Positions 1-18,318 of a stretch of DNA of 64,000 nt are shown here, one piece after another. A program made the position numbers and the translations under genes. The notes under the pieces are model-generated. The model was not told the origin of the DNA and searched no databases. It saw only the letters and a list, made by a program, of their open reading frames with translations. Origin of the DNA: Nitrosopumilaceae archaeon (GTDB lineage Archaea > Thermoproteota > Nitrososphaeria > Nitrososphaerales > Nitrosopumilaceae); the NCBI GenBank assembly GCA_965203465.1, contig CBDBCR010000003.1:352001-416000 (forward strand), given 5' to 3'. Within the stretch, counting starts at the first letter, position 1. Every line of letters begins with the position of its first letter.

Positions 1-178
1 ACGTGCCTGGCCCCGGTATGTATCCACGCAGGGCTTCCGAACCCCGATCGTGTTCAGCGTTGACAGCGGCGTATTTTTTGAGCGACAGAGTCGCCATCCA
101 AGAGAGATGAACCCTCTCCACCCGGATGTTCTTGGAATCTGCCGTTCTCGATCTAGCGGCCTTTGCCCGTCTAGTCAT
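1..178 (-). CDS. 5' fragment of an SspC/BrxC-like ATP-binding protein (runs off the window start)
   Basis: ATG at 178 overlaps the DUF4007 stop (ATGA coupling). The frame is open to base 1: MTRRAK...KKYAAVNAEHDRGSEALRGYIPGPGT, resembling the 'SxNxExD...LxGY(I/V)' N-terminus of ATPases that follow DUF4007 genes. No Walker motif is visible within the window. Confidence 0.6.
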   Translation of the reverse strand, partial: MTRRAKAARSRTADSKNIRVERVHLSWMATLSLKKYAAVNAEHDRGSEALRGYIPGPGT

Positions 179-1119
179 GCAAGAGCCTCCTCGGTTCGGC
201 GCGTGCCCGGCGCTCTGCGGCCGTACGCTGCGTACAGCACTTGGAACGCGGCGTCTCGCGCGCTGCCTTTGAACGTCATGTTGGGCATGCCGTTGGCGTG
301 GCTTACCGAGACGGCGCCGCACGCACCGGCCGCCTCGGACAACATTTCTGCCATGTCCGTCTCGCTCAGCTTGAACGCTGTTCCGGGCCCGCCGTTTTCG
401 AGGGCAAGTCTGTTGATCGATATGGTGCGCCCCGGGATCTCCGCCCTGTCCACAAAGTCCAGGCACGCGTACGCCACGACTAGGGGCGAGAGGCCGGGTT
501 TCCTGCCCGAGACGAACCGCACGTCCCCGTCCTTCCGCCTCAGCAATCCGAGCGTCCTGAGCGGGCAGTCTAGATAATCCTCCGTCTGTTCTTTGTCTTT
601 TTTGGACAGGTACGTATGCAGGAACACGTCGGTGTCGCGTTTTACAGAATGCTTGCTTGGCTTCCACCCGTCGACGGCATACACCGTCGACTCTGCCTCT
701 TCCAAAAGATCCGCCGCAGAATAGACCCCGGTGCCGGCTCCGTTCATTATGGCCCACCACGTGGGAAGGTAGCACGGCGGCGCCAGCAGCGACCAGTGCA
801 TCAACCATACAGTCTCTGGCCTGTCAAGATCTGGATCGAGGCCGCCGTGGTCATGGAATATGGCTTTCCCCAGAACCGTGGGCGCTGCCCGGGCCTTTCT
901 GGCACCGGTTCCGTTCTCCAAAACTTTGGCCGCCAAGGCCCAGAACCTCATGGACCGCACCATGTTCTTGCCCACGCCTAGTACTACAGGCGCGTCGTCG
1001 CGCGAGAACACGTCCCGATCGTCTGAGGCATGATCGTATGCCTGCTTTAGCCAGCCGTACCTTGGGTGGAACGTCTCGTGGCGCCCAAACATCTGACGAG
1101 CAGAGTCTTCTAGGCGCAT
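175..1119 (-). CDS. DUF4007 family protein (SspB-like)
   Basis: Motifs FGRHETFHPRYGWLK, LGVGKNMVRSMRFW, WLMHW-L, DCPL-LGL are typical of DUF4007. Start moved to ATG 1119. Confidence 0.88.
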   Translation of the reverse strand: MRLEDSARQMFGRHETFHPRYGWLKQAYDHASDDRDVFSRDDAPVVLGVGKNMVRSMRFWALAAKVLENGTGARKARAAPTVLGKAIFHDHGGLDPDLDRPETVWLMHWSLLAPPCYLPTWWAIMNGAGTGVYSAADLLEEAESTVYAVDGWKPSKHSVKRDTDVFLHTYLSKKDKEQTEDYLDCPLRTLGLLRRKDGDVRFVSGRKPGLSPLVVAYACLDFVDRAEIPGRTISINRLALENGGPGTAFKLSETDMAEMLSEAAGACGAVSVSHANGMPNMTFKGSARDAAFQVLYAAYGRRAPGTRRTEEALA

Positions 1120-1215
1120 GTATTGGATCCTCCCGCAACTCGATTCGAACACGCGGAGTCTTGTGGCAAAACGGACAGCTTGGCCAGGCTTCCATTTGCC
1201 GCACTTGAGAGCATG

Positions 1216-3147
1216 TTAAGCACCCCGATACCCGTGTTTGCGTAGATGTTGATCGTGGTGGCTGAGCGACCGAGTTTTCAATGCCAAGTCGCAGAGTCTG
1301 TTCTCCCGTTCTTCCAGCACATCTGCGGTCCATTCGCCATATTGGTTTAGATATTGCTCGTTGAGCTTGATGTCGGAGCTGCCGTATCCTCGCGGATCTT
1401 GCAGTTTTTCTGCGAAACGCTTTGCTCCCATGCCGCGGTTCCATTTTCTTGGCAAGAGCGTGAGGTTGCCCAGGCGATTCTTGTACTTGTTTATGTCCTC
1501 GTCCTCGGGGTTTTCGCCAAGGAATGCCGAATCGTCCCACTTTTGGTGGTTTTTGGGCAGTATGTGTTCCAACTCGAACGCGTGTTTTGGATACGGGTGG
1601 GGCTTTTCACGGTTCAGGTATATTTCCATTGACAAGAGGATGTATTTGGCGGCCTTGGGGGTAAGCTTGAACATTTTACCCTTAAAATTTTCTGCGAACT
1701 TGGCTTCGGCAATACGCGGAAGCGGGGTACCGGCTACATCCTCGTTTACCAATATCAGGTATATCATTTCTGACAAGCTGGCGTCGCCCTCTAGTTTTTT
1801 TGTGACCCTATTGGCGATAGATCTGACATCTTCTGCGGTTCCATCGTTGATGAATTTGAACTTGAAGAAAAACGTCAAGAGGCAGTCCGCCAAAGTCTGA
1901 AATTCGTAGCTGCCCAAGCTCCATTTCCGGCCAGCTGCGAGCATGGGAACCCGTATGTATCTGGCGCCGAGAAGCTGCATCAGGTAAAAAATACTCTGGG
2001 TTTTTTCGTACTTTTCGTCCTCTGGCAGATCCTCCGGGTAATCCATCTGCTTGACAATTTTGGCGTCTTCGTTGAGGTGCTCTATGTATCTCTCTGCTTC
2101 TTTCGCATTCCTTACCGCAGACTCGACTATCTCGTACAAGTTTTCTGTAGTTATGGGTTTGTCGTTGTAGCGACCCGACGGATGCCGAGAAGATGTGGAT
2201 TCGTATAGGAACCGGTCGTGATCTTCCAAGCGTTCGTCGAATATCTCGCGCCACCGACGTTCCATTCTCTCATGGGCGCCTTGAGACTTTGTGGTGCTGA
2301 GCAGGTGGGATTTTATCAGGTCTGCATCCATTAGCTTTTGTCCTTGAGAGTTAAAGGTGGCGAATATCTTGTAGGCGCTGTACCTGTTGTAAACTACGAT
2401 GAACGCAAAGTGGTTACGCTTTACCAAGTTTTGGGATATGTGTCTAGACAATTCGTTAGCCGCCTCTGAAAACTCATCGGGTTTCTTGTTGTCGAAAGAT
2501 TTATCCAACTTTGCGAGCATTTTTTCCGCCCGTTCGGACAACACGCGGTAGTTGTTTATGAGTAGCGCGTTAGAATCAAGTATTCTTTTTTTGCTGTTCT
2601 TGTACTTGACTAGCAGATCTCTGCACCGGCCTACGTAATCGTGCGTATCTGTGGACATAATATCCCGAAACAGAACAGAATCGTCGTTTCCCAGTTCGAT
2701 TCGTGGCTCTCCTGGCTTTATGTTCAGTATGTTGTCGATGGTGGCCACCGCGTTATCTAGCGCAGGGCGCGTGCCGGGCAGCTCGTTGCCCTTGAATTTG
2801 TATAGACACGAGCGAATAGCGCACAGTATCAGCGCGATGGTGGCTAGTCGCTGCTGTCCGTCGACCACTTCGAACTTTGGCGAGCCGCTTTCTTGTGGAA
2901 CGACGACCATAGCTCCGAGCAGGTTGGTTGAACTAGGCGAGCCGCTAGGCGCTTCTGCCGTCTTTGCTATATCCTCGAACAGCCGTACGGCGTTATCGAC
3001 GTCCCACGAGTAACTTCTCTGATAAGACGGGATTTTGTATGCGTGGATTTCGTCCAACAGGCTACCGATCGACCTGCGGTGTACCTCATAATCCTCGTAA
3101 GACACGTCAAAAGCACCCGGATAGTTCTTTAAATGTTTTAAGTCCAA
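1216..3147 (-). CDS. DUF262 + DUF1524(HNH) protein, SspE/GmrSD-type restriction component
   Basis: IPSYQRSYSW, VVDGQQRLAT and IFATFNSQGQKL (DUF262); ELEHILP...LGNLTLL...N (His-Me nuclease). Visibly AT-richer than its flanks. Confidence 0.88.
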   Translation of the reverse strand: MDLKHLKNYPGAFDVSYEDYEVHRRSIGSLLDEIHAYKIPSYQRSYSWDVDNAVRLFEDIAKTAEAPSGSPSSTNLLGAMVVVPQESGSPKFEVVDGQQRLATIALILCAIRSCLYKFKGNELPGTRPALDNAVATIDNILNIKPGEPRIELGNDDSVLFRDIMSTDTHDYVGRCRDLLVKYKNSKKRILDSNALLINNYRVLSERAEKMLAKLDKSFDNKKPDEFSEAANELSRHISQNLVKRNHFAFIVVYNRYSAYKIFATFNSQGQKLMDADLIKSHLLSTTKSQGAHERMERRWREIFDERLEDHDRFLYESTSSRHPSGRYNDKPITTENLYEIVESAVRNAKEAERYIEHLNEDAKIVKQMDYPEDLPEDEKYEKTQSIFYLMQLLGARYIRVPMLAAGRKWSLGSYEFQTLADCLLTFFFKFKFINDGTAEDVRSIANRVTKKLEGDASLSEMIYLILVNEDVAGTPLPRIAEAKFAENFKGKMFKLTPKAAKYILLSMEIYLNREKPHPYPKHAFELEHILPKNHQKWDDSAFLGENPEDEDINKYKNRLGNLTLLPRKWNRGMGAKRFAEKLQDPRGYGSSDIKLNEQYLNQYGEWTADVLEERENRLCDLALKTRSLSHHDQHLRKHGYRGA

Positions 3148-3258
3148 TGCGGTGTGTCAGTGGGCCTGAATCCAATAGTTCGCCTGTACGAGCGCGGTAT
3201 GCGAAGTTGCGCGAGCGCTGATTTGCTGCAACGCGGCCGGCGCGATCGCCGTCTGAGG

Positions 3259-4416
3259 TCATTGCCCTGCCACCTCCACCGTCTTGCCCCGCACAAATCT
3301 GGCCGCGTTCGTCAATTCGGCTACGGCCAGATCTACGTCGCTTTGTTCTGTAGGAACGCCCAGCGACACGCGCACCGACTCGTCGGCCGCGTCCCTGCCG
3401 AGACCCATGGCGGTCAGCACGTGGGACGGCTCCATCGCAGACGACGAGCATGCGCTGACCGACGAGATCTCTATCCTGCGCGCGTTGACAATGACCGCAT
3501 CGGCTATGGCGCCTTCTATCCGGACGTTGGACGTGTTTGGCAGCCTCGGCGCCCCGCCCCCGTTGACAGAGACGCCGCCAAGCTCCGAGACAAGGCGCCT
3601 CTCCATCCCGTCTCGCATGGCCGCGTGCTCGCCGGCCTTGTTCGCCATGACCGGCACCACGTGCTCGCACGCGGCGGCCATGCCGAGTATTCCTGGCACG
3701 TTGAGCGTGCCGCTGCGCATGCCCCTCTCCTGGCCCCCGCCGTGGATCTGGGCCCTTAGCATCTTGCGCGCCTCTTTGTTGGCCACCAGGGCACCGCATC
3801 CCTTGGGGCCGTATATCTTGTGGGCGCTGAACGTGGCTATGTCCACTCCCGCCCTGCCTGCATCGAACGGCACCTTGCCTACAGCCTGGGTGGCGTCGCT
3901 GTGGAGCAGGGCCCCGTGCCTGTGAACCAGCTCGGCTATATCCTCTATGGGCTGCACGACCCCCGTCTCGCTGTTGGCCGCCCCGACCGAAACCAAGTCC
4001 GTCCGGTCGTCCATACGGGCTTCCAGATCGGCCAGGTCCACCAGCCCGTCGGCGCCGACCGGCAGCACGTCAGCCTTGAGCCCGAAATTCCCCATGGCCG
4101 CGCACGGGTTGATCACGGACTTGTGCTCCGTAGAGCAGTAGAGAGCCCGGCGCTCGCGCCCTGGATCGAGCCCGAGCGAGGCAAAGACTACGTTGTTGGC
4201 CTCGGTCGCGCCGGACATGAACACGACGTCGGACTGCCTCATGCCGACCGCGGCGGCCACTCTCTGGCGCGCCCCTTCGACCGCATCCATAGCGTCCTGG
4301 CCGGACTCGTGGACACTGGCAGGGTTGCCGAAGTTTTCGGCCAACGCGGGCATCATCGCCTCTACGACTACACCTGCCGCAGGGGTCGTGGCGTTGTAGT
4401 CTAGGTACACCGGCAT
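3259..4416 (-). CDS. Cysteine desulfurase (IscS/DndA/SspA family)
   Basis: YLDYNATTP, GNPAS, SGATEANN, HSDATQ, PLP lysine motif SAHKIYGPKG, RSGT, catalytic SACSS. Confidence 0.95.
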   Translation of the reverse strand: MPVYLDYNATTPAAGVVVEAMMPALAENFGNPASVHESGQDAMDAVEGARQRVAAAVGMRQSDVVFMSGATEANNVVFASLGLDPGRERRALYCSTEHKSVINPCAAMGNFGLKADVLPVGADGLVDLADLEARMDDRTDLVSVGAANSETGVVQPIEDIAELVHRHGALLHSDATQAVGKVPFDAGRAGVDIATFSAHKIYGPKGCGALVANKEARKMLRAQIHGGGQERGMRSGTLNVPGILGMAAACEHVVPVMANKAGEHAAMRDGMERRLVSELGGVSVNGGGAPRLPNTSNVRIEGAIADAVIVNARRIEISSVSACSSSAMEPSHVLTAMGLGRDAADESVRVSLGVPTEQSDVDLAVAELTNAARFVRGKTVEVAGQ

Positions 4417-4440
4417 GGTGTGGCCCCCAACCCGCTCTGA

Positions 4441-4446
4441 TTTAAA
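4441..4446 (-). promoter_or_regulatory. Archaeal TATA box for the desulfurase operon (leaderless)
   Basis: TTTAAA 24 nt upstream of ATG 4416, the same spacing seen at many genes in this window. Confidence 0.6.
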
Positions 4447-4629
4447 CTTGGCCGGCCGATCGGCCGGAGGCGCGCGATCGCGTCCACGGCGCTGGAAAAC
4501 CCCCGTCCGGGCGCCGCGTTTTGATAAAAAAATTTTTGTCTGTCACTGTATGGCAAGGCCGCCAAAAAGCGCCCCGGCGCGACTTTTGCGCGCGGTTTCA
4601 CGCGCGATCCCGGGCAAAAGCTATATAAT

Positions 4630-5627
4630 ACGCGCAGTTTGGACCTTATGGAAAAGCTCCGGTACACGTGCGGCCGGAACTCGCGCTCGAGCAGGTTGCG
4701 GCTCCCGTACATGACGTGCGGGTTCTGCGCCGAGCCCGGGTGCCTCGCGTCCTCCACCGTGATCGGCAGGGGCGGCGAATAGAGCACGCTGTTCATGTCC
4801 GACCACAGCTTTTTGGCGATGTGGTTTTTCGGTATGTCGTAGTCGAACATCTTGACCATGCACCCGTCCTCCAGCCGCCCGCCGCCGGGCAGGATCTCCA
4901 GCGGGCCGCCCGGGACGGTGCAGATGCGCCCGTCCGGCCCCACAAAGTACTCGTACCACGTCGTCTTGTCGTCGTCCGAGGCGTTGGGCGTCTCGCGCAC
5001 CAGCGTAAACCCCCACTCGGAGCCGGGCGCCAGTTCCGCGCTGCGCCGCGCCGCGATCAGCTGGTAGCCCCGCTCGCCGCAGAACGGCAGCACGCCGGTT
5101 CCGCCCATGTTGTACTTGCCCTGCACGAACTTTATCCTCTTTTTGTTGCCCTTTTGGAGCGAGAGCAGCGTGGTCTCGAACTTTTCCGGCTCCTGCCCCT
5201 CGCCCCTGTCGGCCACGACTATGTTGGGGCTCGAGGTTTTCGCGCCGTCCGCCATCACGCGCACGTTCTGCGCCAGTTTCAGCATCTTTGGCCCGTCCAG
5301 TTTCGAAATGTCGCCGCCGGGCACGCCCATGTACCTCTCGAGCGCCTCGGCCATGCTAGACGGGGCGCCGCGGCCCGCCGGCCTGTCCCCCGCCATCAGG
5401 CAGTGCTTTATGAGCACGTGGTCGATGGAGTTGACCGGCTTTTCGCACAGGGAATTGACCGGCGAGGACTGCTGGTTTGAGACTATGGCGTAGTTGTTCT
5501 CGGTGCCGCCAAGCGGCTTCCACCCGGCGTCCCTGAAAAAGGGGCCGCCCAGTATCCGGTCCACGTCCCTTTCGCCCTGCGCCCGGGCCAGCGAGAGCAG
5601 CGCGTCGCGCCCGCTCACCTGCGCCAT
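4630..5627 (-). pseudogene. GHKL-type ATPase, probably 3'-truncated
   Basis: EKPVNSID (ExxxN), DRGEG (DxGxG) and GKYNMGGTG motifs. The high-GC3 coding pattern stops abruptly near 4630, although the ORF formally runs on to 4401 through the downstream promoter. Confidence 0.65.
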
Positions 5628-5740
5628 CCCGCGTCCACGGGCGCGCCCCACTTGCCGCGCCTAAAAACGTCAGGGTCGCGGGCCGCCGCCGGCCGCCGCC
5701 CTTCGGTAAATCTTTAACCGTGCCCATTTCCACGCGGGGC

Positions 5741-6157
5741 ATGGCATCGGGAGCCCGCATAGCCGAGGCGCGCCGGAAGGTATCGGATCTGATGGAGGCC
5801 GTCGGCGGGCTCGGCGCGGCGCCCGGCGGCGTGACCACGATGATCGACTCGGCCAACCTGCGCAGGCAGGCAGACCACCTCGAAAAGTCGGATCGCGTAA
5901 AGTCGGAGGCCATATCCGCGTACGCCGAATATACGGGGATGCTAGAGCGCGCCCTGCGCGAGGTGGCAGAGGCGCAGCGCCAGATATCCTCCATGGCCAG
6001 GCCGAAAAAGGCCGGCAGGGCAAAGCCGGCCAAGAAAGCGCGGGCAAAGCCGGCCGGAACCAAAAGGCCGGCAGGGCCGAAAAAGGCCGGAAAGGCCAAG
6101 GCCGGCAGGGCAAAGCCGGCCCGCGTCAGGAAATCCGCTCCACGTCGCCGGCGCTGA
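5741..6157 (+). CDS. Small coiled-coil protein with Lys/Ala/Pro-rich basic C-terminal tail
   Basis: Helical N-terminus followed by repeated KKAGRAKPA-like units; TATA-like TTTAA at about 5712. Confidence 0.7.
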   Translation: MASGARIAEARRKVSDLMEAVGGLGAAPGGVTTMIDSANLRRQADHLEKSDRVKSEAISAYAEYTGMLERALREVAEAQRQISSMARPKKAGRAKPAKKARAKPAGTKRPAGPKKAGKAKAGRAKPARVRKSAPRRRR

Positions 6158-7061
6158 CCGAGACCTCGCCGCCGGCGTCTATCACCAGCGAGCCGTCCTC
6201 GTCCATCCGCACGGCCGTCCCCTCGACGGATCCCGCGCGCACGCGCGAGCCTATCGTCGACGAGGCGGCAGTCCAGTCCGAGACCGTGCGGCCCCCGCCC
6301 GCAAGCTCGGAGAGGCGCGCCTCGAGCCGGTCGCATACCAGGCGCGCCGCGCCGACCATCGTGGCCGACGGCGCGCTGTCCGCGAGCGAGGCGGCCCCCC
6401 TGAACCCCGGCGTGCCGGACAGGCGCGCCTCGAGAGCCGCCGCGTCCACGTCGAAGTTGAGCCCTATCCCTATGACCGCGCTCGGCTCGGCGCCGAGCGA
6501 CGCCTCGACGGCGACGCCGGCGAGTTTCTTGCCGCCCAGCTCCACGTCGTTGGGCCAGCGCAGGCGTGGCTCGGCGCCCAGCGTCTTCACCGCGTCGTGC
6601 ACGGCCAGCGAGGCCGCGGCCGGTACGAGCGACGGGCGGCGGGCGCGCGAGACGTGCGAGCGCACAAACGCCGACATCCACAGGCCACCCTCAGGGGACT
6701 CCCACGCGCGCCCCGACCTGCCGCGCCCGCGCGTCTGCCTCGAGGCGAACACGGCAGCGCCGTCGGCCCCCATCCGCGCGGCCTCGTCCTGCGTGGACGC
6801 GCACACGTCGATGTACGCGGCCAAGCTGCCCACCGAGCCCGAGCGCCTGCCCTCCGAGACGAGCCACGGCAGCGGCAGGTCCGGCGACGAAAGAACGCGC
6901 CCGCCCTCTATTACGTACCCCAGGCTCTTGAGCCTGCCCAGTTCCATTAGCGCGGCGCGCCTGCCCCCGCAGATCCCCTCGATCTCGGGCCGCCCGACCG
7001 GGCCGCCCCGCAGCGCGGCGGCGAGCCTCGCGGGCACCTCGTCGGAGGGGCCGAGTATCAT
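6126..7061 (-). CDS. birA: Biotin-protein ligase (BirA family, with N-terminal HTH remnant)
   Basis: STQD, QTRGRGRSGRAWESPEGGLWMS, RWPNDV...KKLAG, IGIGLN, and an SH3-like C-terminus. Confidence 0.92.
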   Translation of the reverse strand: MILGPSDEVPARLAAALRGGPVGRPEIEGICGGRRAALMELGRLKSLGYVIEGGRVLSSPDLPLPWLVSEGRRSGSVGSLAAYIDVCASTQDEAARMGADGAAVFASRQTRGRGRSGRAWESPEGGLWMSAFVRSHVSRARRPSLVPAAASLAVHDAVKTLGAEPRLRWPNDVELGGKKLAGVAVEASLGAEPSAVIGIGLNFDVDAAALEARLSGTPGFRGAASLADSAPSATMVGAARLVCDRLEARLSELAGGGRTVSDWTAASSTIGSRVRAGSVEGTAVRMDEDGSLVIDAGGEVSVSAGDVERIS

Positions 7062-7610
7062 CTAAAAGCCGAGGTCGAAGCCGCCGTCGAGGCCCGGATC
7101 GCTGTAGTCCTGCCCGCCGGCGTCCCCCGCGTCCCCGTCGCCGCCCGACCCGTCGGCGGGCATGTCCTCGGCCGGCACGTAGCTGCCCATCGAGGCGCCC
7201 ATCATGGAGAACATCATGGAGAACATCATCATGTCCATGACCCCGAAGAACATCATCATGGGCAGGAACGAGCGGTTGTCGTCCATGAACCCCTTTAGGC
7301 CGGCCTTGTCCTTGCGCTCGTAGAGCATCTTCATCTCGCCCCACTTTGACTCGGCCTCGCGCAGGCCCTCCTGGAGCTCGCGCTGGCCCGCCGGCGTGTT
7401 GCGTATCTGGACTTTTTTGCCGAACAGCCCCTTTTTCTCGACCACCTCTATCATGCCGTCCCTCTCCAGCTCTTCGAGTATGGAGTTGAGCTCTTCCGGC
7501 TCTAGGTTGGAGAGGCGGCGTATCTTGTCGAACTTTTTGGCCTCGCCCTGTATGGCGCCCAGCACTATCACCTTGCGCGGCCCGTACCTCACGGCCCCGG
7601 CTCCGGGCAC
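7062..7610 (-). CDS. Winged-helix protein with Met-rich hydrophobic segment and acidic Gly/Asp tail
   Basis: MarR-like wHTH pattern (LEPEELNSILEELERDGMIEV); strong coding codon bias. Confidence 0.7.
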   Translation of the reverse strand: MPGAGAVRYGPRKVIVLGAIQGEAKKFDKIRRLSNLEPEELNSILEELERDGMIEVVEKKGLFGKKVQIRNTPAGQRELQEGLREAESKWGEMKMLYERKDKAGLKGFMDDNRSFLPMMMFFGVMDMMMFSMMFSMMGASMGSYVPAEDMPADGSGGDGDAGDAGGQDYSDPGLDGGFDLGF

Positions 7611-7646
7611 CCGGTATTAAAATTTTGCATCGGCCCCGGATCGGGC

Positions 7647-8582
7647 CTAGCCTATCGATATCATGCGCTCTATGGCCAGGCGCGCGCGGTCTGCCACCTC
7701 GCGCGGCACGCGCACCTCGTACCTGTCCTCGGCCAGGGCGTCGCGCACGTTGCGCATGTTTATCGTCTTCATGTACTGGCACTCGGCCTTTTCCGAGGCG
7801 GGCACGAACTTTTTGCCCGGGTTCTGCTTGCGCATGCGGTGCAGTATGCCCGTCTCGGTGGCCACCACGAACGGGCCCGGCCCAGAGGCCGCGCGCCCCA
7901 TCATGCCCTCGGTGGACAGTATCGAGACTGTCCGCGAGCCGTACCCCCCCGAGGCCGCGTCGTAGAGCAGCGGCGTGGTGCATCCGCACTCGGGGTGCAC
8001 GAGCAGCTCGGCGCCGCGCATCGCGTCCATCTTGGCGGCCACCTCCTCGGGCCTTATCCCCGCGTGCACGTGGCACTCGCCGGCCCACACCCGGACGTTG
8101 GAGCGGCCCGTCTGGCGCGCCACGTACGCGCCGAGGAACATGTCCGGCAGGAACAGTATCTCCTTTTCGCGCGGTATCGCGTTCACGACGGCGACCGCGT
8201 TGGACGACGTGCAGCAGTAGTCCAGCTCGGCCTTTACGCTCGCGGCGGTGTTTACGTACCCGACGGCCACGGCGCCGGGGTGCTCTTTTTTCCACTCGGC
8301 GACCTCTTCTGCCGTGATCGAATCGGACAGCGAGCAGCCCGCCTCGAGCGTCGGGATGAAGACGCGCTTTTGCGGGCTGATGATGGCCGCCGTCTCTGCC
8401 ATAAAGTGCACGCCGCAGAACAGTATCCGCGAGCGCCCGTCTTTGCCGGCCATGCGCGAAAGCCCCAGCGAATCGCCCACATAGTCCGCTATATCCTGGA
8501 CCTCGGGCACCTGGTAGTTGTGCGCCAGTATCAGCGCGTCCTTTTGCTCCTTCAGCCGGAGTATCTCGTCTCGGTACGACAC
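7647..8582 (-). CDS. nadA: Quinolinate synthase A
   Basis: LAHNYQ, FCGVHFMAE, YVNT, CCTSSNA, HPEC and CQYMK motifs. Confidence 0.97.
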   Translation of the reverse strand: MSYRDEILRLKEQKDALILAHNYQVPEVQDIADYVGDSLGLSRMAGKDGRSRILFCGVHFMAETAAIISPQKRVFIPTLEAGCSLSDSITAEEVAEWKKEHPGAVAVGYVNTAASVKAELDYCCTSSNAVAVVNAIPREKEILFLPDMFLGAYVARQTGRSNVRVWAGECHVHAGIRPEEVAAKMDAMRGAELLVHPECGCTTPLLYDAASGGYGSRTVSILSTEGMMGRAASGPGPFVVATETGILHRMRKQNPGKKFVPASEKAECQYMKTINMRNVRDALAEDRYEVRVPREVADRARLAIERMISIG

Positions 8583-8672
8583 GGGCCTGCTTGCCGGGGG
8601 GGCGATTTAAGGCCAGGGATGCATGCACCCAGCGCGCCGGGCGGGCGCGCCGGCGGCAATTATTGCCCCCGC

Positions 8673-9479
8673 TCAGGCGCCCACGCGCAGGCCCGGCGAG
8701 CATATGCGCCGCAGCGCCTCCACGCACGAAAGCGCCGCGAGCCGGCTGGTGCGCGGGTTCTCCGAGGGCACGTTTTCCACCTCCACGCGGAGCCTGCCGA
8801 ACCTGCCTTCGGCCTCGACCACGTGCGTGTTGCGCGAGGCGCCCGGATCGGCGACCAGCCTCACCCGCGTGCGCTCCCCGCCTGCCGAGGCCAGCGCGAC
8901 AGAGGCTGCCACGTTGACGTTGGCCGGGAACAGTTTCACGGCCTCGGCGGCGGTCCCCTCAAAGACCGTCGCCGGCCCGTCCAGCTCCGGCTCTTTTCCC
9001 CCGAAGAACGGGGCGCCGCGCAGCGCGGCCGGCGGCTTTGTGGTGGTCAGCGTCACCGAGTCGGCCTCGGCGCGCACGGCCCCCAGGGCGTCGAGGCCGG
9101 CCACGGCGCCGGACGGCACGTAGACGCTGCGCGAAAAGTCCGAGCAGGCCCCGCAGAGCACCTCGCGCACCGCCTCGTCGAGCAGCGCCCCGACGCTCAT
9201 CACCACCAGATCCGAGCGGTTCTGCAGCACGCTCAGGCCCGCGTTCCTGACGGCCTCCTGCGAGGCCGCCTCGACCACCAAGTCGACGGGCCTCGAGGAG
9301 AGCAGGTGGGCGTTGCCGGCCACCTTCACGCCGGGCAGCTTTTCTGCCAGCAGCTTTGAGCGCGAGGCGTCCGCGTCGTACACGCTGTCCAGCTCGGCCC
9401 CGGGGACGCGGCCGGCCGAGACGGCCTCGGCTATGGCCGTGCCCATCGCGCCGCACCCGAGCAGCCCTATCCTGCGCAA
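8673..9479 (-). CDS. nadX: L-aspartate dehydrogenase
   Basis: GLLGCGAMG, VEAAS, SGAVAGLD, FPANVNVA, NPRTS; adjacent to nadA. Confidence 0.95.
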   Translation of the reverse strand: MRRIGLLGCGAMGTAIAEAVSAGRVPGAELDSVYDADASRSKLLAEKLPGVKVAGNAHLLSSRPVDLVVEAASQEAVRNAGLSVLQNRSDLVVMSVGALLDEAVREVLCGACSDFSRSVYVPSGAVAGLDALGAVRAEADSVTLTTTKPPAALRGAPFFGGKEPELDGPATVFEGTAAEAVKLFPANVNVAASVALASAGGERTRVRLVADPGASRNTHVVEAEGRFGRLRVEVENVPSENPRTSRLAALSCVEALRRICSPGLRVGA

Positions 9480-9818
9480 CGCCGGGGGGCCCGGGCGGGC
9501 CGTAATTAACTGCGGGTTTGCAGGCAGGTACGGCCGCCGGGGGCGCGTGCAGCGGAAAAAAACGCATGGTCTGCGCCGCGGTCCGGACGGGCGTCCGGGG
9601 CGGAGCGCGCGGTGCGGGCGGTATCGGCCGGTGGATCGACGTCCGGATCCGGCAGAAAGTCAGGGGCGGCGCGGACGGGCGCTCGGCATATGCGTCGCGG
9701 TTCCATCCAATCCGCGCCGACACCGCGGCTTGCACGAGCGCCGCGCAGCCGGACGTGCCGGGGTTCGCGTCCAAAATCAGATGCCCGCATACGTCATCTC
9801 CAGCCTTCTCGTGTGCGA

Positions 9819-10091
9819 TCACGGACGGTTGTCGCGCATGTACAGTTCTTCGTGATCGCCGATTTTCAAGATGTGTATGGTGCTGTTGTCGTACGATACT
9901 TTGTAGATGACGCGGGTTGACTTCGTTAGGCGGTGTCCAAAACAGTTTTTGTATCTGCCAGTCTTTTGTTCACCCATATGTGTTGGATTGTTGGTGTTTC
10001 TTATCTCGTCAATAAACGCACGATACTTCTTTATTACTTGACTAGATTTGTGTTTTTTGATATTTTTCTTTGCGTCGCTTGAAAGTTCCAT
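9819..10091 (-). CDS. RelE/ParE-superfamily toxin
   Basis: 90 aa basic protein with RVIYKV...ILKIGDHEELY C-terminus; starts 9 nt after the putative antitoxin stop; AT-rich. Confidence 0.8.
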   Translation of the reverse strand: MELSSDAKKNIKKHKSSQVIKKYRAFIDEIRNTNNPTHMGEQKTGRYKNCFGHRLTKSTRVIYKVSYDNSTIHILKIGDHEELYMRDNRP

Positions 10092-10100
10092 ATTCCAGAG

Positions 10101-10697
10101 TCATTCCTTCATCAAGCGATCAATGTATTGTATATGTTCTTCTATAGAGTGCCCCTCCCAGTTTGCGTTTTCTGATTCGATCTCTTGTATCATGCGTTCA
10201 ATTTCAGGACTGAAACGTACATCCTCTGGACCTTCATCAGTCACTCTGTCCTTTATCCGGCTGTTCTTGGCATATTGCGGATAGTCTGCACATATTTCTC
10301 CGATTAGCTTGTCCAGTGATTTTTTGTTCAGGTTGGTAAACGTCTCGTAAATTCGACCGACGAGATCTCCGTGGTCGTGCAGCAACGACGACAGCCTCTT
10401 GGCGCCCTTTGGCGCAAGGCTGTAAAAGTCCATCGCGCGGCCGCCAAACTCTCTGGATTCGATCTTGAGCAACCCCGTCTTTTCAGCTTCCTGTAGATCG
10501 CATGTAAGATCCATGCTGTACGGACCGTAGTGGTACGCCTCCCAATCCGAATAGAACCCCAGAGGCTTGAGATCGGCCCGGTATAGCTGGTATGCAAGAA
10601 AGCCGTATTTCTGCAGCCGTGTTCTGCCCCTTATGGGGCCTGGTTGATGAGAAAGACTATCCTGTCCGTTCCTTCCAACGGTTGCCTTTCCCGGCAC
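10101..10697 (-). CDS. Panacea/SocA(YwgA)-like antitoxin with acidic C-terminal extension; 5' end probably frameshifted
   Basis: GRTRLQKYGFL and WEAYHYGPYS motifs. A better N-terminus (TTG 10678) lies in another frame. Confidence 0.7.
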   Translation of the reverse strand: MPGKATVGRNGQDSLSHQPGPIRGRTRLQKYGFLAYQLYRADLKPLGFYSDWEAYHYGPYSMDLTCDLQEAEKTGLLKIESREFGGRAMDFYSLAPKGAKRLSSLLHDHGDLVGRIYETFTNLNKKSLDKLIGEICADYPQYAKNSRIKDRVTDEGPEDVRFSPEIERMIQEIESENANWEGHSIEEHIQYIDRLMKE

Positions 10698-11214
10698 CCA
10701 TATTTGAACCGCGGACTCGGGTCGATTGAGGCCGCGCCTAGTCCGCTTCGGCTAGGCGCGCGCGGCGCCGTTGGGGCGCCGGCCCAGCTCTGCCGCGCGT
10801 CTTTGCCCCAGCCGCCCGCGCGGCGGGGGCGAGCCGGCGTTCTGCGCTGCCGCCTCGAGATTTAGCTCCGAGATCTCGCGCTCGTATCCCAGGAACCGTG
10901 CTTCCGAGCTGCTCGTTCTCGGGCGAGACCCCGACGAGATCCCTGCGCACTGGCGGTCTCCGGCACGGGCCTGCGCCGGATCCGGAGATCAACAAACACA
11001 GCCGGTCAAAAAAACTACAGCCAAGTGCCGAAAATCGACCCGGCCGGTCCCCGGCAGCCCGAACCGAGACGGGCGCACCCGACCGCCGGGCTCTTGCCGC
11101 TACCCGCCGCGCCCGTTCCCGGGGCGGGGCATCGCCGTGCGGCCCCCGGGCCGGAAACGGCGCCGCGCCCCGCCCTGTCCAGAATTTATATGGCAACGCG
11201 CGCGTGCCGGCCGC

Positions 11215-12018
11215 ATGGCGTCCAGGATGGATTCGGACTTTGCGTACGTAGACGGCAGGGGCAACGTCATGCGCTCGCGCGCGGAGCTGGCCGTGGCGCG
11301 GATGCTGTCCTTTCTGGGGATAGAGTACGAGTACGACGCGCCGGTCGGCGGCTCGGGGCTGCGCGCCGACTTTTCGACAGGCAGGGGCCTCATCGAGGTC
11401 GTCGACTCCGAAGAGGACGCCGAAAAGTACCGGCGCATAAAGGCCGAGCTGCCCGGGGGGCGCGTGGCCGCGGTCGGGCGCCCGCGGCACGGCGCCAAGG
11501 CCGGGGATCTGCGCGAGATATCGTTCTACGAGGACGAGCCGGAGTCCGGCTCCATATTCATCGAGGACCCCTCGTTCGCGTTCGACTACGCCCACATACT
11601 CCCCCTGGTCGAAAAGTGCTCCATACTGCACGGCCACACGTCCTCGATAATGGTGGAGCTTGCGGGCCGCATGACCGACAACCTCGTGATGGACTTCGGC
11701 GAGGCCAAAAAGATGATACGCTCGGCCGTCGCCCGGTTCGACCACAAGTTCTTCATCAACGAAAAGTACCTAAAGTCCAGCGAGGGTGGCCACTACCGCG
11801 TGGCCTTTGACGGCCCGCGCGGCGCGTTCGACCTGACCGTCCCGGCCGACACCGCCTACCTCCTGCGGGGCGAGGCCACCGTCGAGAACCTCTCCTCGGA
11901 GCTGGTGCGGATACTGACCCCGATGCTGCCCGGCAACATAGAGGCCGTCGGCGTGTACATTTACGAGGGGCACAACAAGGGCTCGCACATCATATCGAGC
12001 GTGGCAAGGGGCGGATAG
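11215..12018 (+). CDS. queD: 6-pyruvoyl/6-carboxy-tetrahydropterin synthase (QueD family) with N-terminal PD-(D/E)XK-like domain
   Basis: FDYAHIL, CSILHGH, MDFG, FDHKF, TVEN; TTTATA at 11185-11190 supports ATG 11215. Confidence 0.85.
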   Translation: MASRMDSDFAYVDGRGNVMRSRAELAVARMLSFLGIEYEYDAPVGGSGLRADFSTGRGLIEVVDSEEDAEKYRRIKAELPGGRVAAVGRPRHGAKAGDLREISFYEDEPESGSIFIEDPSFAFDYAHILPLVEKCSILHGHTSSIMVELAGRMTDNLVMDFGEAKKMIRSAVARFDHKFFINEKYLKSSEGGHYRVAFDGPRGAFDLTVPADTAYLLRGEATVENLSSELVRILTPMLPGNIEAVGVYIYEGHNKGSHIISSVARGG

Positions 12019-12063
12019 GCAACGATACGGGAAAAGGCGTGGAACCCGGGCCTCGAAAAGGCC

Positions 12064-14322
12064 GTGCTCGAAAAGTGGCGCAAAGAGGGCACGTACAGGT
12101 TCGAGCCGGGGGCGAAAAACTACACCATAGACACCCCGCCGCCGTACCCGTCGGGCAGGCCCTGGCACATCGGGGCCGCGGCGCACTACGCCCAGATAGA
12201 CATGATAGCGAGGACCGCCCGCATGTCCGGCAAGAACGTGTACTTTCCGGTGGGCATCGACCGCAACGGCCTGCCCGTAGAGCTGTACACCGAAAAGAAG
12301 CACGGCATACGCATGCAGGAGACCGAGAGGGGCAGGTTCTTGGAGCTGTGCAGGGAGGCGCTAGACGACCTGGAGGAAGAGATGATACTGACGATGAGGA
12401 ACCTCGGCCTGAGCGGGGATCTGGACGGGCACTACCGCACCGACTCCAGAGAGTACCGGGCCCTCACGCAGGCCACGTTCATAAGACTGTGGAAGGACAA
12501 GAGGGTGTACTCTGCCACGCGGCCCACCAACTACGACTGGGTCTCGGGCACCACGATAGCCGACGCCGAGATATCCTACCTCGAGCTGCCCTCCAAGCTT
12601 GTCCACATGAGGTTCGAGCACGAGGGGGGCAGCGTCACGGTGGCCAGCACCAGGCCGGAGCTGCTCTGCGCGTGCAGGGCCGTCATCGTCAACCCCGAGG
12701 ACGAGAGGTACTCTGGCGCGGTGGGGCGCGCCGTCAGGGTCCCGCTCACGGGAGCCGAGGTCCCCGTGCGCGCGCACAGCTCGGCAAAACGGGACTTTGG
12801 ATCCGGCGCCGTGATGATATGCAGCTACGGCGACCAGCACGACGTGGCCCTGTTCCGCGAGATGGGCCTGGAGGAGGTGCGCGCCGTCGGCACCGACGGC
12901 AGGATGACGGACGCGGCCGGCAAGTACTCGGGGATGCGCCCCAAAAAGGCCAGGGAGGCCGTCATCGCCGACCTGGAGGAGGCCGGCCTCGTGGAAAAGA
13001 CGGAGCAGATAACCCACCGCACGCCCGTCTCGGAGAGGACAAAGACGCCCGTCGAGATAGTGCCCCTCGAAGAGTACTATGTCAGGCAGACCGACCGCGT
13101 AGAGCAGATGCGCTCCGTCTCCGATCTGGTATCGTTCTTCCCCGAGAGGCACAGGCAGATACTGCACAACTGGCTGGACTCGATAGCCATAGACTGGCCC
13201 GTCTCGAGGCGCAGGTACTACGGCACCGAGATACCCGTCTGGTACTGCACGGGGTGCGGCGAGCCGCACGTGCCCGAGCCTGGGAGGTACTACCAGCCCT
13301 GGAGGGAAGAGTGCCCGGCGGAAAGGTGCCCCGAATGCGGCGGCTCGGAGTTCCGCGGCGAGGAGCGCACGTTCGACACGTGGATGGATTCGAGCGTCTC
13401 GCCCCTCTTCGTTTCCAGGTACGGCGTGGACGAGGAGTTTTTCAGGGCCACGTACCCCGCCTCGCTGCGCCCCCAGGCCAAGGACATCGTGCGCACGTGG
13501 CTTTACTACACGCTGCTGCGCTGCACCGAGCTTACCGGCCGCGTCCCGTGGTCGGAGGCGTGGATAATGGGGTACGGCCTCGACGAGCGCGGGCTCAAGA
13601 TGAGCAAGAGCCGCGGCAACGCCATCGACCCCCTGCCGCTGATAGAGAAGATGGGCGCCGACACGTTCCGCTTCTGGAGCGCAGGCGAGATAGGCCACGG
13701 CTCGGACTTTAGGTGCAACGAGCAAAAGATAGAGTCCACCAAAAAGTTCCTCAGCAAGCTGTGGAACGTGGCGCGCCTGGTCTCGGGCTTCGAGCGGCGC
13801 GGCCCCGGCGAGTTGCAGGACGCGGACAGGTGGATACTGGCCGAGCTGGACCGCCTGGTGGCCGAGTGCAGGAAGGGGTATTCAGAGTACAACTTTTTCG
13901 TGCCGGCCGTGGCCGTGCGCGAGTTCGTCTGGAACGTGTTCGCGGCCCACTACCTAGAGATGGTCAAAAAGCGCGCGTACGGCGAGGGCTCCGAAGGGGG
14001 GCGCGACGCGGCCGTCGAGACTATGCACCGCGTGCTCTCCGCGGTGCTAAAGCTGCTCGCCCCCATCGCCCCGTTCATAACCGAGCACCTCTGGCAAGAG
14101 CTGTACTCTGACGGCGAAAGCGTGCACCTGCAAGAGCTGCCCTCGCCGTCGGGCAACCCCGGCCCCCCGGTCTCGGGAGAGCGCATCTACGCGTTCAACT
14201 CGTCTGTGTGGAACGCCAAAAAGGAGCGCGGCCTGTCCCTCAAGGACCGGATAGACGTGGAGGTGCCCCACGAGCTCCGGGGCGTGGCGGCGGACCTGCG
14301 CGCCATGCACAACCTGCCATGA
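12064..14322 (+). CDS. valS: Valine-tRNA ligase (true start may be slightly upstream)
   Basis: DTPPPYPSG, HIGA (HIGH), DTWMDSS, KMSKS. Confidence 0.96.
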   Translation: MLEKWRKEGTYRFEPGAKNYTIDTPPPYPSGRPWHIGAAAHYAQIDMIARTARMSGKNVYFPVGIDRNGLPVELYTEKKHGIRMQETERGRFLELCREALDDLEEEMILTMRNLGLSGDLDGHYRTDSREYRALTQATFIRLWKDKRVYSATRPTNYDWVSGTTIADAEISYLELPSKLVHMRFEHEGGSVTVASTRPELLCACRAVIVNPEDERYSGAVGRAVRVPLTGAEVPVRAHSSAKRDFGSGAVMICSYGDQHDVALFREMGLEEVRAVGTDGRMTDAAGKYSGMRPKKAREAVIADLEEAGLVEKTEQITHRTPVSERTKTPVEIVPLEEYYVRQTDRVEQMRSVSDLVSFFPERHRQILHNWLDSIAIDWPVSRRRYYGTEIPVWYCTGCGEPHVPEPGRYYQPWREECPAERCPECGGSEFRGEERTFDTWMDSSVSPLFVSRYGVDEEFFRATYPASLRPQAKDIVRTWLYYTLLRCTELTGRVPWSEAWIMGYGLDERGLKMSKSRGNAIDPLPLIEKMGADTFRFWSAGEIGHGSDFRCNEQKIESTKKFLSKLWNVARLVSGFERRGPGELQDADRWILAELDRLVAECRKGYSEYNFFVPAVAVREFVWNVFAAHYLEMVKKRAYGEGSEGGRDAAVETMHRVLSAVLKLLAPIAPFITEHLWQELYSDGESVHLQELPSPSGNPGPPVSGERIYAFNSSVWNAKKERGLSLKDRIDVEVPHELRGVAADLRAMHNLP

Positions 14323-15095
14323 CCGACGCGCGCTCCATAAAGGCGAGGTTCGCGGCCGCCTACGGGGGCAGCGCCCACCTGCGCGAGGCCGTGCCCCACG
14401 AGTATCCGGGCGCGCCGGCCGGCCGCCTGGAGATGCTCCACGAGTTCGCGCGCGCCTCGCCCATCTACCACAACTCGTTCGCGATGGATCTTGGCGTGCC
14501 CTGCACCGCCTACGAGGGCGACATCAGCGGGCACTGGATAGACAGCACAAAGCACGACGCGAGCGCCCAGCCGTTCTACCCCACCTGGATCCTCTCGGCG
14601 TACCTCGCGGCCGCCGAGGCCGCGCGCCTCGGCGCGCGCCAGTCCGTCGACGTGGGATCGGGCGACGGCAGGGTGGCCTACGCGTGCGCGCTGGCCGGCA
14701 TGGAGTCGCACGGCGTGGAGCTGGACCCAGGGCTGTGCGCCCTGCAAAAGTCCGTCTCGGAGGGCACCGGCGTGGGGTTCGGCGTGCACTGCGCCGACGC
14801 GGCCTCGTTCGACTATTCGGCGCTGGGCCTGCGCCGGCCGGCCGTGTTCATAGGCGGGCTGCCGCAGATGGGGGAGGGCCTGGCCGAGGCCGTCGTGGAG
14901 TCGGTCCTCGGCCTCGGGCTGGACCGCCCCGTGTTCGTGCTGATGGGCAGCCGCGAGCGCAGGGCCCTGGGCCCGGGCGGCTCGTGGGACGGCCTCTTGG
15001 AAAAGGCCGGGCTGGCGGCAAAGTCAGTCCTGGAGCTTCCCACGTCGTGGACCATGGACAGGGCGCGCGACACCCCGTACATCTACGCCTACTAG
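14319..15095 (+). CDS. Putative class I SAM-dependent methyltransferase
   Basis: ATGA overlap with the valS stop; VDVGSGDG motif I followed by GVELD. Confidence 0.75.
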   Translation: MTDARSIKARFAAAYGGSAHLREAVPHEYPGAPAGRLEMLHEFARASPIYHNSFAMDLGVPCTAYEGDISGHWIDSTKHDASAQPFYPTWILSAYLAAAEAARLGARQSVDVGSGDGRVAYACALAGMESHGVELDPGLCALQKSVSEGTGVGFGVHCADAASFDYSALGLRRPAVFIGGLPQMGEGLAEAVVESVLGLGLDRPVFVLMGSRERRALGPGGSWDGLLEKAGLAAKSVLELPTSWTMDRARDTPYIYAY

Positions 15096-15700
15096 GTGCC
15101 GTGTATCGAATCGCCGTACGTGCCCTCTATGGACGAGCTCGACACGTCCGGCATGGGCGACTGGAGGCGCGCGACGGTCACGCCCAGCTTTAGCTTTTTG
15201 CACCCGTCTATGATTGCGCGCTCCTGGTGGACCTGGTCGTACCCGAGCGCGATTATCTGCGGCCGTATGCGCGCGACGGTCCTGAATATGTCCTCGTCGT
15301 CGCCGACCACGGCCGCGTCGGCCAGCCGGAGGGCCCCCACCAGATCGCGCCGCTGCTCCTGGCTGTGCAGCGGCCTGCGGCGCTTCATCTTGACGGCCGT
15401 CTTGTCGGTGGCGATGACGACCACCAGCACGTCGCCTAGGCCGGCCGCCTCGCGGAGCGTGTGTATGTGGCCGGGGTGTATGATGTCGAACACGCCGCCT
15501 GCCAGGACAACCTTGATCTTTGAGGAGCCCTTTTCGGTCGGCCGCCTGTCGGGGCCAACGAGGCCGTCGCGCGCCATGTACACGAGCCTCTCGCGCACGC
15601 CGTCGGCGTCGGGCATCGCGCGCAGCGCCGGCTCGGGATCGCGCCCCTCAAGTGCCGCCACGTACAGGCGCGCCAGTATCCGCCTGTCCGTAGAGTCCAC
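15092..15700 (-). CDS. ribL: FAD synthase / cytidylyltransferase family protein
   Basis: GGVFDIIHPGH (HxGH), IALGYDQ, SSS motif. Confidence 0.8.
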   Translation of the reverse strand: MDSTDRRILARLYVAALEGRDPEPALRAMPDADGVRERLVYMARDGLVGPDRRPTEKGSSKIKVVLAGGVFDIIHPGHIHTLREAAGLGDVLVVVIATDKTAVKMKRRRPLHSQEQRRDLVGALRLADAAVVGDDEDIFRTVARIRPQIIALGYDQVHQERAIIDGCKKLKLGVTVARLQSPMPDVSSSSIEGTYGDSIHGT

Positions 15701-15788
15701 GCGCAGCGCCAGCCGGCCCCGTTTGATTAACCCATCGGGCCGCGCGCAGGGCCCCCGCCGAAGCGCGCAAAAATAAGTGGTTTGGGGA

Positions 15789-16124
15789 CTAGCCCCTTCC
15801 CATCGCGGCGTACTTGCCGGAGCGCGACCTTATGAAGAACGCTGCCGCTATGCCCCCGAAGATAGCCCCGGATATGATGGACGCGCCCACGACGCCGTTG
15901 GCGTCAAGGTACGGCGTGCCCGAACCGGTCTCTGGGTTTTCCATCGCGAGCGTGACGCGCCTGCTCTGAAGCTCTAGGGCCTCTTCGAGCGTGTTTTGCC
16001 CCGTCTCTCCCTGCGAGCCGACGTTGCCGAGGTACTGCGCGTGCGCGACCCCCGCAAAGCCCATGCTCGCCGCCAGCGTGGCGGCCACCAAGCCGCCAAG
16101 CAGTACAGATCTGGTCATAGCCAT
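15789..16124 (-). CDS. Small secreted/membrane-anchored hypothetical protein
   Basis: Signal peptide ending AHA, C-terminal TM helix and basic tail; TATA-like TTAAAT about 25 nt upstream; divergent from rps15. Confidence 0.75.
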   Translation of the reverse strand: MAMTRSVLLGGLVAATLAASMGFAGVAHAQYLGNVGSQGETGQNTLEEALELQSRRVTLAMENPETGSGTPYLDANGVVGASIISGAIFGGIAAAFFIRSRSGKYAAMGRG

Positions 16125-16234
16125 CGGGCCGGATCCCGGCCGGCTCCTATTTAACCCTTGGGCAGATCAGGCCCGATCGCGCGGGGCCGCGCCCCGATCC
16201 CAAGGTTTAATTCGGCAGATCGGGGCGCGCGCGC

Positions 16235-16753: not shown

Positions 16754-16754
16754 C

Positions 16755-18095: not shown

Positions 18096-18318
18096 GGTCA
18101 GGCTGCCGGGCCTGCCCGACGGCGCCGCGCGCGCCGCCTCGGAGGCGCTCGAGGCGGACAACGTGGGCTTTCCGCCCGGCCAGTCCATGGAGGTGCGCGC
18201 AGGACAAGACTCGCTCGAGATCGACTTCAGCGCGGACGGCAGCATCGCCTCGCTCGCTTCCACCATAGACGAGGTGCTCTCGCACGTGCAGGCCTCGCTG
18301 GGGGCGACAAGATGCTAG
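18076..18318 (+). CDS. pcc1: KEOPS complex subunit Pcc1
   Basis: 80 aa; ALEADN...SLASTIDEVL pattern; conserved rps15-DHH-Pcc1-serS order. Confidence 0.75.
   Translation: MSRCRVEVRLPGLPDGAARAASEALEADNVGFPPGQSMEVRAGQDSLEIDFSADGSIASLASTIDEVLSHVQASLGATRC

Follow-up and report, generated by a model that had tools for sequence, protein, structure and literature searches.

We describe here a gene array that begins in the window, i.e., the whole stretch of DNA analysed (64,000 nucleotides, positions 352001-416000 of contig CBDBCR010000003.1, hereafter C3, of a Nitrosopumilaceae archaeon), and continues into the 18 kb that precede it on the same contig (L001; a window coordinate equals the L001 coordinate minus 18000). 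We are confident, short of certainty, that the array, which is co-directional over about 15 kb, holds an intact SspABCD-type DNA phosphorothioate (PT) modification module of an ammonia-oxidising archaeon together with several candidate effectors; as far as the literature search shows, no archaeal Ssp system has been characterised. The gene content, the intactness of the genes, their motifs and their conserved linkage are direct observations. The new element is a triad of genes for a superfamily 2 (SF2) helicase, a MORC-like GHKL ATPase and a phospholipase D (PLD)-family nuclease, which is linked near-exclusively to SspBCD across domains; no printed description of it beside Ssp genes was found in the literature searched.

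A preliminary description of this DNA, made from its letters, had placed it in a thaumarchaeon, and the genome bears this out. The small-subunit rRNA gene scores 1441.8 bits with the archaeal model versus 1088.5 bits with the bacterial one, archaeal AmoA is present (383.3 bits) and McrA was not found in the genome (2.26 Mb, 65% G+C, completeness 96.86%), and therefore the host is an ammonia-oxidising thaumarchaeon. The same description had listed, all in one orientation, a cysteine desulfurase, a DUF262-HNH protein, a DUF4007 protein and a coupled start resembling SspC or BrxC, and each of them is present in the list of open reading frames (ORFs) and by Pfam and PADLOC profiles (Table 1). It had also pointed beyond base 1 for a P-loop ATPase and a 3'-phosphoadenosine-5'-phosphosulfate (PAPS) reductase, where a full-length SspC (989.9 bits with the PADLOC SspC profile) and an SspD were indeed found.

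All four Ssp ORFs are full length when compared with the PADLOC profiles (SspA 1-371/374, SspB 2-295/295, SspC 3-1103/1104, SspD 1-276/277), without internal stops and with their motifs kept: SspA has the pyridoxal phosphate lysine K200 in SAHK and the catalytic cysteine C323 in SACS, SspC has Walker A (GPYGSGKS, residues 83-90) and Walker B (VIVDE), and SspD has the PP-loop SGGKDS at residues 9-14. Likewise, the helicase retains motifs I, II, III and VI, and the GHKL ATPase its N and G boxes. Overlaps of start and stop codons point to translational coupling of SspB to SspC (ATGA), of SspC to the next ORF, orf192 (GTGA), and of the helicase to the GHKL ATPase (ATGA); the SspC ATG at window position 178 overlaps the SspB stop (GCATGACT) and has GGAGG 8 nt upstream. 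In the 367 bases between orf192 and SspD, behind TTTATAAAG, lies a 56-aa ORF found at the same relative position in the related thaumarchaeal loci L019 (68% identical) and L021 (48%). The SspD ATG has a second TATA-like element, CTTATAAAC, some 25 bases ahead of it, suggesting a separate transcription unit of SspD, helicase and GHKL ATPase.

Table 1. Genes of the Ssp array and adjoining candidate effectors, with coordinates in the window or in L001 as marked.
Feature	Coordinates	Strand	Profile match or remark
SspA, cysteine desulfurase, 385 aa	window 3259-4416	minus	Aminotran_5 237.1 bits; PADLOC SspA 409.9, DndA 403.7 bits
GmrSD-family DUF262/DUF1524 protein, 643 aa	window 1216-3147	minus	GmrSD_N 110.9 and GmrSD_C 71.8 bits
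SspB, DUF4007 protein, 325 aa	window 175-1152	minus	Pfam DUF4007 250 bits, 1-288/288; PADLOC SspB 278.4 bits
SspC, BrxC/DUF499-like P-loop ATPase, 1140 aa	L001 14756-18178	minus	window 1-178 holds its first 178 bases
orf192, RNase H-fold ORF, 192 aa	L001 14181-14759	minus	before window base 1
56-aa ORF	L001 about 13870-14040	minus	between orf192 and SspD
SspD, PAPS-reductase-like, 275 aa	L001 12986-13813	minus	PADLOC SspD 365.6 bits; PAPS_reduct 36.1 bits
SF2 helicase	L001 11373-12947	minus	ResIII 78.9, DEAD 53.9, Helicase_C 53.8 bits
MORC-like GHKL ATPase	L001 9607-11376	minus	HATPase_c_3 79.3 bits
HNH456, 456 aa	L001 8150-9520	plus	HNH 23.3 bits
orf321, PLD-family nuclease, 321 aa	L001 7086-8051	plus	HKD consensus

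A gene order of A-E-B-C had been called unusual ('E' being the DUF262/DUF1524 gene), and it is so: the locus reads A-E-B-C-x-D, with orf192 and the small ORF between C and D, and SspA directly precedes SspB in the four related thaumarchaeal loci with sufficient context. These are L019 (A-B-C-orf192-(HNH456-like)-D-GmrSD-helicase-GHKL), L020 (A-B-C-GmrSD-D-helicase-GHKL), L022 (D-helicase-GHKL-A-B-C) and L021 (PLD-A-B-C-..-GmrSD-like-GHKL-helicase); of the others, L023 is degenerate, and L005 and L008 are short contigs. Identity among the thaumarchaeal loci is 75-80% for SspD and 40-48% for SspB and SspC. The order is not an assembly artefact, because both junctions of the DUF262 gene are crossed by contigs from another study, made independently; one of these contigs, of 6979 bases, spans window 1-4660 with 8 letters different. 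This near-identity, together with the four full-length Ssp ORFs, free of stops and with their motifs kept, makes it improbable that we are dealing with a decaying remnant which has ceased to modify DNA, although such decay would find some parallel in the split or partial SspC of relatives G004, G088 and G105, in a same-genus locus (L025) with SspD-helicase-GHKL and a GmrSD gene and no SspC match, and in the partly eroded motif of the PLD protein of the array itself.

Type 4 BREX (BrxP-BrxC-PglZ-BrxL) has to be weighed too, since it has homologous ATPase, DUF4007 and PAPS-reductase parts, and SspC does match BrxC (363.2 bits), with SspD weakly matching BrxP (39.4 bits). The Ssp profiles, however, score far higher (989.9 and 365.6 bits, respectively), SspB and SspD are separate genes here, and a desulfurase, SspA, is linked. 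The preliminary description would have reclassified the locus had PglZ or BrxL turned up; of the two only PglZ (PF08665) was sought, and the genome, 96.86% complete, has 0 matches to it; the locus is therefore not read as type 4 BREX, to which we would concede hardly any probability.

The claim that the module has a desulfurase of its own, distinct from housekeeping IscS, was well founded. Besides SspA, five other Aminotran_5 matches in the host genome exceed the Pfam cut-off. The SspA tree had 43 rows (the SspA of the array, five related thaumarchaeal SspAs, 34 SspA-like ORFs that reach 300 bits or more in the 80 loci described below, and three paralogs of the host; weaker or partial SspA matches and two distant paralogs were left out). 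In this tree our SspA falls within a seven-row thaumarchaeal Ssp-linked clade (support 93/82), which is nested with Ssp-linked SspAs of Actinomycetota (Acidimicrobiia, Mycobacterium, Rhodococcus; support 98/99), and the two IscS/NifS-like paralogs of the host pair with each other, apart from SspA. In addition, SspA stays below the NCBIfam cut-offs for NifS (346/531), IscS (326/643) and DndA (318/480). One of the two IscS/NifS-like paralogs proved to be DndA, encoded in a DndB-C-D-E-A cluster that is distinct from the Ssp locus and some 475 kb away from it (C3 about 827,900-833,850, or L106 5906-11846, minus strand; PADLOC DndB 367, DndC 598, DndD 534, DndE 123 and DndA 465 bits), so that both kinds of PT machinery are encoded in one genome. 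The ORFs scanned next to the Dnd cluster include no Pbe genes; its neighbours are an OLD/Gabija-like ATPase ORF and an AbiU-like ORF.

Between SspA and SspB lies the GmrSD-family gene (GmrSD_N and GmrSD_C are the Pfam families formerly named DUF262 and DUF1524/HNH), whose product had been taken for the DGQQR/HNH effector of the system. As far as architecture and motifs go this stands, as the protein has an N-terminal DUF262 domain with DGQQR (residues 96-100) and a C-terminal DUF1524 HNH domain, with EHILP at 526-530, and is encoded beside Ssp genes. Orthology to SspE does not stand, neither by PADLOC profile (HEC-06 235.9, Orf5 191.6 and SspE 86.7 bits, the last over an N-terminal stretch only) nor by sequence search against solved structures, where DndI (9JFL, 58.7 bits in three stretches along the length) is closer than SspE (6JIV, 25.5 bits). 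Its residues P40, Y42 and Q43 align to P23, Y25 and Q26 of DndI, which, according to the passages retrieved from PMC11662687, make up a PT-sensing patch common to SspE; by the same passages, DndI cleaves DNA that is free of PT, and PT releases it, while SspE needs PT for its action. Judging by these alignments, the protein is a candidate DndI/SspE-like PT-sensing NTPase-nickase. It resembles DndI of Salmonella enterica Cerro 87 in size (643 vs 596 aa), in DGQQR and in the Pro/Tyr/Gln patch; DndI, however, pairs with DndBCDE and double-stranded GpsAAC/GpsTTC marks (retrieved passages of PMC11662687), whereas the gene described here sits within an Ssp array. Its G+C content at third codon positions (GC3) is the lowest of the array (0.60), as might be expected had the gene entered between SspA and SspB at a later time.

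Further along the array, the helicase, GHKL and PLD genes belong to a combination that is widely conserved. Relatives of the GHKL protein were sought in one genome per species with an alignment of four thaumarchaeal loci as the query, and the best 80 of 211 were examined; these are 6 archaeal records and 74 bacterial ones from many phyla, with full-length identities of 35-52%. When hidden Markov models (HMMs) of the thaumarchaeal proteins were run against stop-to-stop ORFs, at least one of SspB, SspC and SspD was found within 10 kb of the GHKL gene in 71 of these 80 loci, and all three in 52. If only loci flanked on either side by 8 kb or more are counted, the corresponding numbers are 51 and 41 of 52. 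In 72/80 loci the helicase gene comes immediately before the GHKL gene, and in 62/80 a homolog of the PLD gene (orf321) adjoins the GHKL gene; together with the HATPase_c_3 match of the GHKL protein (79.3 bits) this describes a conserved operon of GHKL ATPase, SF2 helicase and nuclease. The PLD homolog mostly shares the direction of the GHKL gene and lies tens of bases or fewer 3' of it; L026, L027, L059 and L021, all thaumarchaeal, have it on the opposite strand, as does our own locus. The HKD consensus of the PLD family is LHAKxYxxDxxCLIGSAN, with H91, K93 and N108 invariant, and 23 of 31 members reach Pfam PLDc_2. The AlphaFold2 model of our own PLD protein (predicted local distance difference test, pLDDT, 91.1) has BfiI, SauUSI, Zucchini, NucT, the NgoAVII R-protein and Nuc as its best folds. 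For the GHKL protein, no sequence of a solved structure matched at E <= 0.01.

PADLOC has no model for the triad, its best matches being MzaB for the GHKL protein (48 bits), PbeA for the helicase (80.8 bits) and none for the PLD protein, and on one Agrobacterium plasmid RefSeq calls the three products 'helicase-related protein', 'ATP-binding protein' and 'hypothetical protein'. At L105 (Agrobacterium plasmid NZ_CP039925.1, 360872-380853) two hypothetical genes and then a gene for a 1836-aa FtsK/SpoIIIE-domain protein come after the triad, an arrangement reminiscent of SspFGH or DndFGH; SspBCD are not among the annotations within the 20 kb shown.

Two censuses add to the picture of linkage. Among 251 Streptomyces genomes, SspC occurs in 11, and an orthologous GHKL protein (504-542 bits) in 9, all of them SspC-positive and with the GHKL gene about 4.5 kb from SspC; none of the 240 SspC-negative genomes has an orthologous GHKL protein (>500 bits), and six matches there reach 120-130 bits. 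Of 301 genomes sampled from the Nitrosopumilaceae, 20, from 7 of 27 genera, have SspC, 19 have the GHKL protein, 15 have both and 5 have SspC only, three of the latter with a split or partial SspC. SspC and the GHKL gene are 1.6-12 kb apart in the 12 family genomes with both on one contig, and in 5 of the 15 genomes with both the GHKL protein is of a divergent type (139-161 bits). To hypothesize, the triad would be an unnamed and widespread restriction module that depends on Ssp phosphorothioation, and would add one more class to the PT-coupled effectors DndFGH, PbeABCD, SspE, SspFGH and DndI; we give this proposal an even chance.

Several points weigh against the reading of the array as one PT-based system with dedicated effectors. 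To begin with, that PT is formed, at which motif and on how many strands, and what the effectors do are predictions from the genes. GC3 is uneven: it is 0.82 for SspA, 0.80 for SspD, 0.76 for SspC and 0.74 for SspB, with host genes at 0.85-0.92, and it falls to 0.67 for the helicase, 0.65 for orf192, 0.62 for the GHKL ATPase and to the value given above for the GmrSD-family gene, so that the array may therefore be a mosaic of separate acquisitions. In our own locus the PLD gene is inverted and an HNH gene (HNH456) sits between it and the GHKL gene; the PLD protein departs from the HKD consensus in having neither its Asp nor its Gly-Ser, and stays below Pfam PLDc_2. With regard to the survey, only the best 80 of the 211 GHKL relatives entered it, and 9 of those 80 loci have no Ssp gene nearby; in 8 of the 9 the sequence ends within 8 kb on one side or both, and only L094 is fully flanked. 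In the family, 4 genomes with the GHKL protein are without SspC. Since related genomes are not independent, the co-occurrence counts overstate the association and are descriptions, not tests. The higher HEC-06 and Orf5 scores of the DUF262/DUF1524 protein, with 4 other GmrSD_N genes in the host genome, mean that it could be an independent type IV enzyme, and the DndBCDEA proteins of the same genome could be the partner of some of the effectors.

A different explanation would be that the Ssp module is genuine, the DUF262/DUF1524 gene, the triad, the HNH gene and orf192 are unrelated genes of a defence island, and PT is an orphan mark or is read otherwise. Besides the uneven GC3, which suggests separate acquisitions, it can draw on the left flank with its MazE-like, DUF2196-AlbA_2 and TraG/T4CP-like genes, on the 4 other GmrSD_N genes and 7 HNH456 paralogs of the genome, and on a second copy of orf192 away from any Ssp gene. 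However, the triad is linked to SspB, SspC and SspD across the 6 archaeal and 74 bacterial records, and the GHKL protein is exclusive to SspC-positive genomes in Streptomyces (9/11 vs 0/240), so clustering within islands is not by itself a sufficient explanation; GmrSD-like genes, moreover, recur inside thaumarchaeal Ssp arrays in varied positions (L019, L020, L021, L025). We therefore regard a mere sharing of an island as unlikely and keep to the reading of an Ssp module with effectors of its own.

By analogy with the bacterial system, SspA would take sulfur from cysteine as a persulfide, and SspD, as a PP-loop ATP pyrophosphatase, would activate and insert it, with SspB (the DUF4007 DNA-binding and nicking subunit) and SspC (the BrxC-like ATPase) presumably finding and preparing the target. 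The outcome would be a sequence-specific and probably single-stranded PT mark on host DNA. This mark would be read by the DUF262/DUF1524 protein, as a DndI/SspE-like NTPase-nickase with its Pro/Tyr/Gln patch, and probably also by the triad, in which SF2 helicase, MORC-like GHKL ATPase and PLD nuclease would damage unmarked DNA in an ATP-dependent manner.

Among known systems, SspABCD-SspE of bacteria comes closest, with the same four modification proteins by profile, a DUF262-DGQQR/DUF1524-HNH protein in the cluster and its own desulfurase; it differs from our locus, which has an archaeal host, the A-E-B-C-x-D order, an 'E' protein that is no SspE orthologue, and the linked helicase-GHKL-PLD module. 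SspABCD-SspE was reportedly treated by Xiong et al. in 2020 for Vibrio cyclitrophicus FF75, E. coli 3234/A and Streptomyces yokosukanensis. The system is also described in the retrieved passages of PMC8092258, PMC9646914 and PMC10853773. SspFGH (PMC8092258) and PbeABCD (PMC6459918) are, like the triad, multi-gene, ATPase-containing and located beside PT-modification genes. In PbeA (PMC6459918) a PLD-like domain and a helicase are joined in one protein, whereas the triad has them in two genes, and its GHKL ATPase has no counterpart in either SspFGH or PbeABCD. The genes downstream of the Ssp core are not SspFGH, as none of SspF, SspG and SspH had a PADLOC match at E <= 0.01 among the 11 proteins scanned; the name SspH in Streptomyces bingchenggensis (PMC9137472) is an unrelated use, 'phosphorothioat' occurring 0 times in that text. 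Identity to PbeABCD was also rejected, with only 80.8 bits for the helicase on PbeA and only 24 bits for SspD on DndC, and there is no PbeC-like SMC ATPase at the Ssp locus.

It was already proposed that prokaryotic operons of MORC or paraMORC ATPases with superfamily II helicases and nucleases are restriction modules (Iyer, Abhiman and Aravind 2008, PMC2292703). In the retrieved passages of that paper the modules stand with DNA methylases or alone, and these passages mention no link to sulfur modification; the subfamily of our triad, in contrast, is found almost only beside SspBCD. SauUSI, NgoAVII and CglI are PLD-helicase restriction enzymes, and the fold predicted for our PLD protein resembles BfiI, SauUSI and the NgoAVII R-protein.

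Should the proposal for the triad be true, the module would be common to bacteria of many phyla and ammonia-oxidising archaea, prokaryotic MORC ATPases would be tied to the reading of a backbone modification, and one small archaeal genome would hold two PT codes (Dnd and Ssp) and at least two readers. According to the passages retrieved from PMC8092258, about 84% of 2,678 bacterial sspBCD clusters have no known restriction partner, and the helicase-MORC-PLD module is a testable candidate for part of this gap. Ammonia-oxidising archaea are abundant and hard to manipulate, and DNA marks and restriction barriers matter therefore both for the ecology of their viruses and for their genetics.

The preliminary description had treated the locus as a singular one, and here it has to be corrected, considering that SspC is present in the 20 of 301 family genomes (and in 8 of 41 relatives) and PT genes have already been mentioned in the literature. 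For sponge ammonia oxidisers, PT genes and DUF262/DUF1524 genes termed 'dndA/B/C-like' appear in retrieved passages of PMC6790972 and PMC7848895; these probably include such Ssp loci, and in this literature, so far as the passages go, Ahlgren 2017 is cited for PT in a free-living strain. No paper that treats SspB, SspC or SspD together with Nitrosopumilus was found in the literature search. Within the family, Ssp loci thus recur in a minority of genomes, to which this one belongs; its predicted reader is DndI-like and not of the SspE type. The same-genus locus L025 (G003, an uncultured Cenarchaeum sp.) has SspD-helicase-GHKL with a GmrSD gene that scores 758 bits with the thaumarchaeal HMM, and there is no SspC match in its whole genome; it may be a partly lost system, or effectors may have been retained without the modification core.

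Two further proteins of the array are less easily placed. For orf192, scans of PADLOC, Pfam and NCBIfam gave no family match and the search against sequences of solved structures nothing meaningful; 39 homologs, none of them named, were found in 5.8 billion protein clusters. Its model (pLDDT 89.9) has archaeal RNase HII as the best fold, loosely (E 8.6e-4, template modelling score 0.36-0.43), and there is conservation at D9, D136, D138 and D161. In L019 and L023, too, SspC is followed by orf192, and the second copy in the genome (35% identity; C1:277089-279407) lies in an islet of low GC3 (0.49-0.54), beside a 333-aa ORF of no known family. The 7 further HNH456 copies in the genome, on C1 and C3, are 23-42% identical to the protein of the array. 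L019 and L029 have homologs of HNH456 inside or beside their Ssp islands. In the Nostoc-type loci L031, L032 and L044, in which no PLD homolog was found, such a homolog immediately precedes a shortened helicase. Against sequences of solved structures HNH456 matched generic HNH domains only, with no sign of a sulfur-binding domain by sequence.

Upstream of SspA there is an ORF of 416 aa (window 4401-5651, minus strand) with a weak HATPase_c_3 match (16.3 bits), whose neighbours in the Atlas are clusters of 335-471-aa 'ATP-binding proteins'. Contigs of four runs, the near-identical contig included, have single-base indels relative to the window at 4572 and 4611-4613, and with one extra base the frame would stop near 4600; the last 65 or so residues and the 16-base overlap with SspA may thus come from a one-base frameshift. 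That this ORF is a relative of the triad GHKL protein was rejected (hhalign probability 0.4%), and no homolog of it was found in any locus compared. No tRNA gene was found in L001 or in window 1-20000. In the far flank (L001 1188-7089), a TraG/T4CP-like ATPase of 1033 aa (TrwB_AAD_bind 24.8 bits) is accompanied by two ORFs, one MazE-like and the other of the DUF2196-AlbA_2 (Schlafen-like) kind, and the region looks like the continuation of a defence or mobile island.

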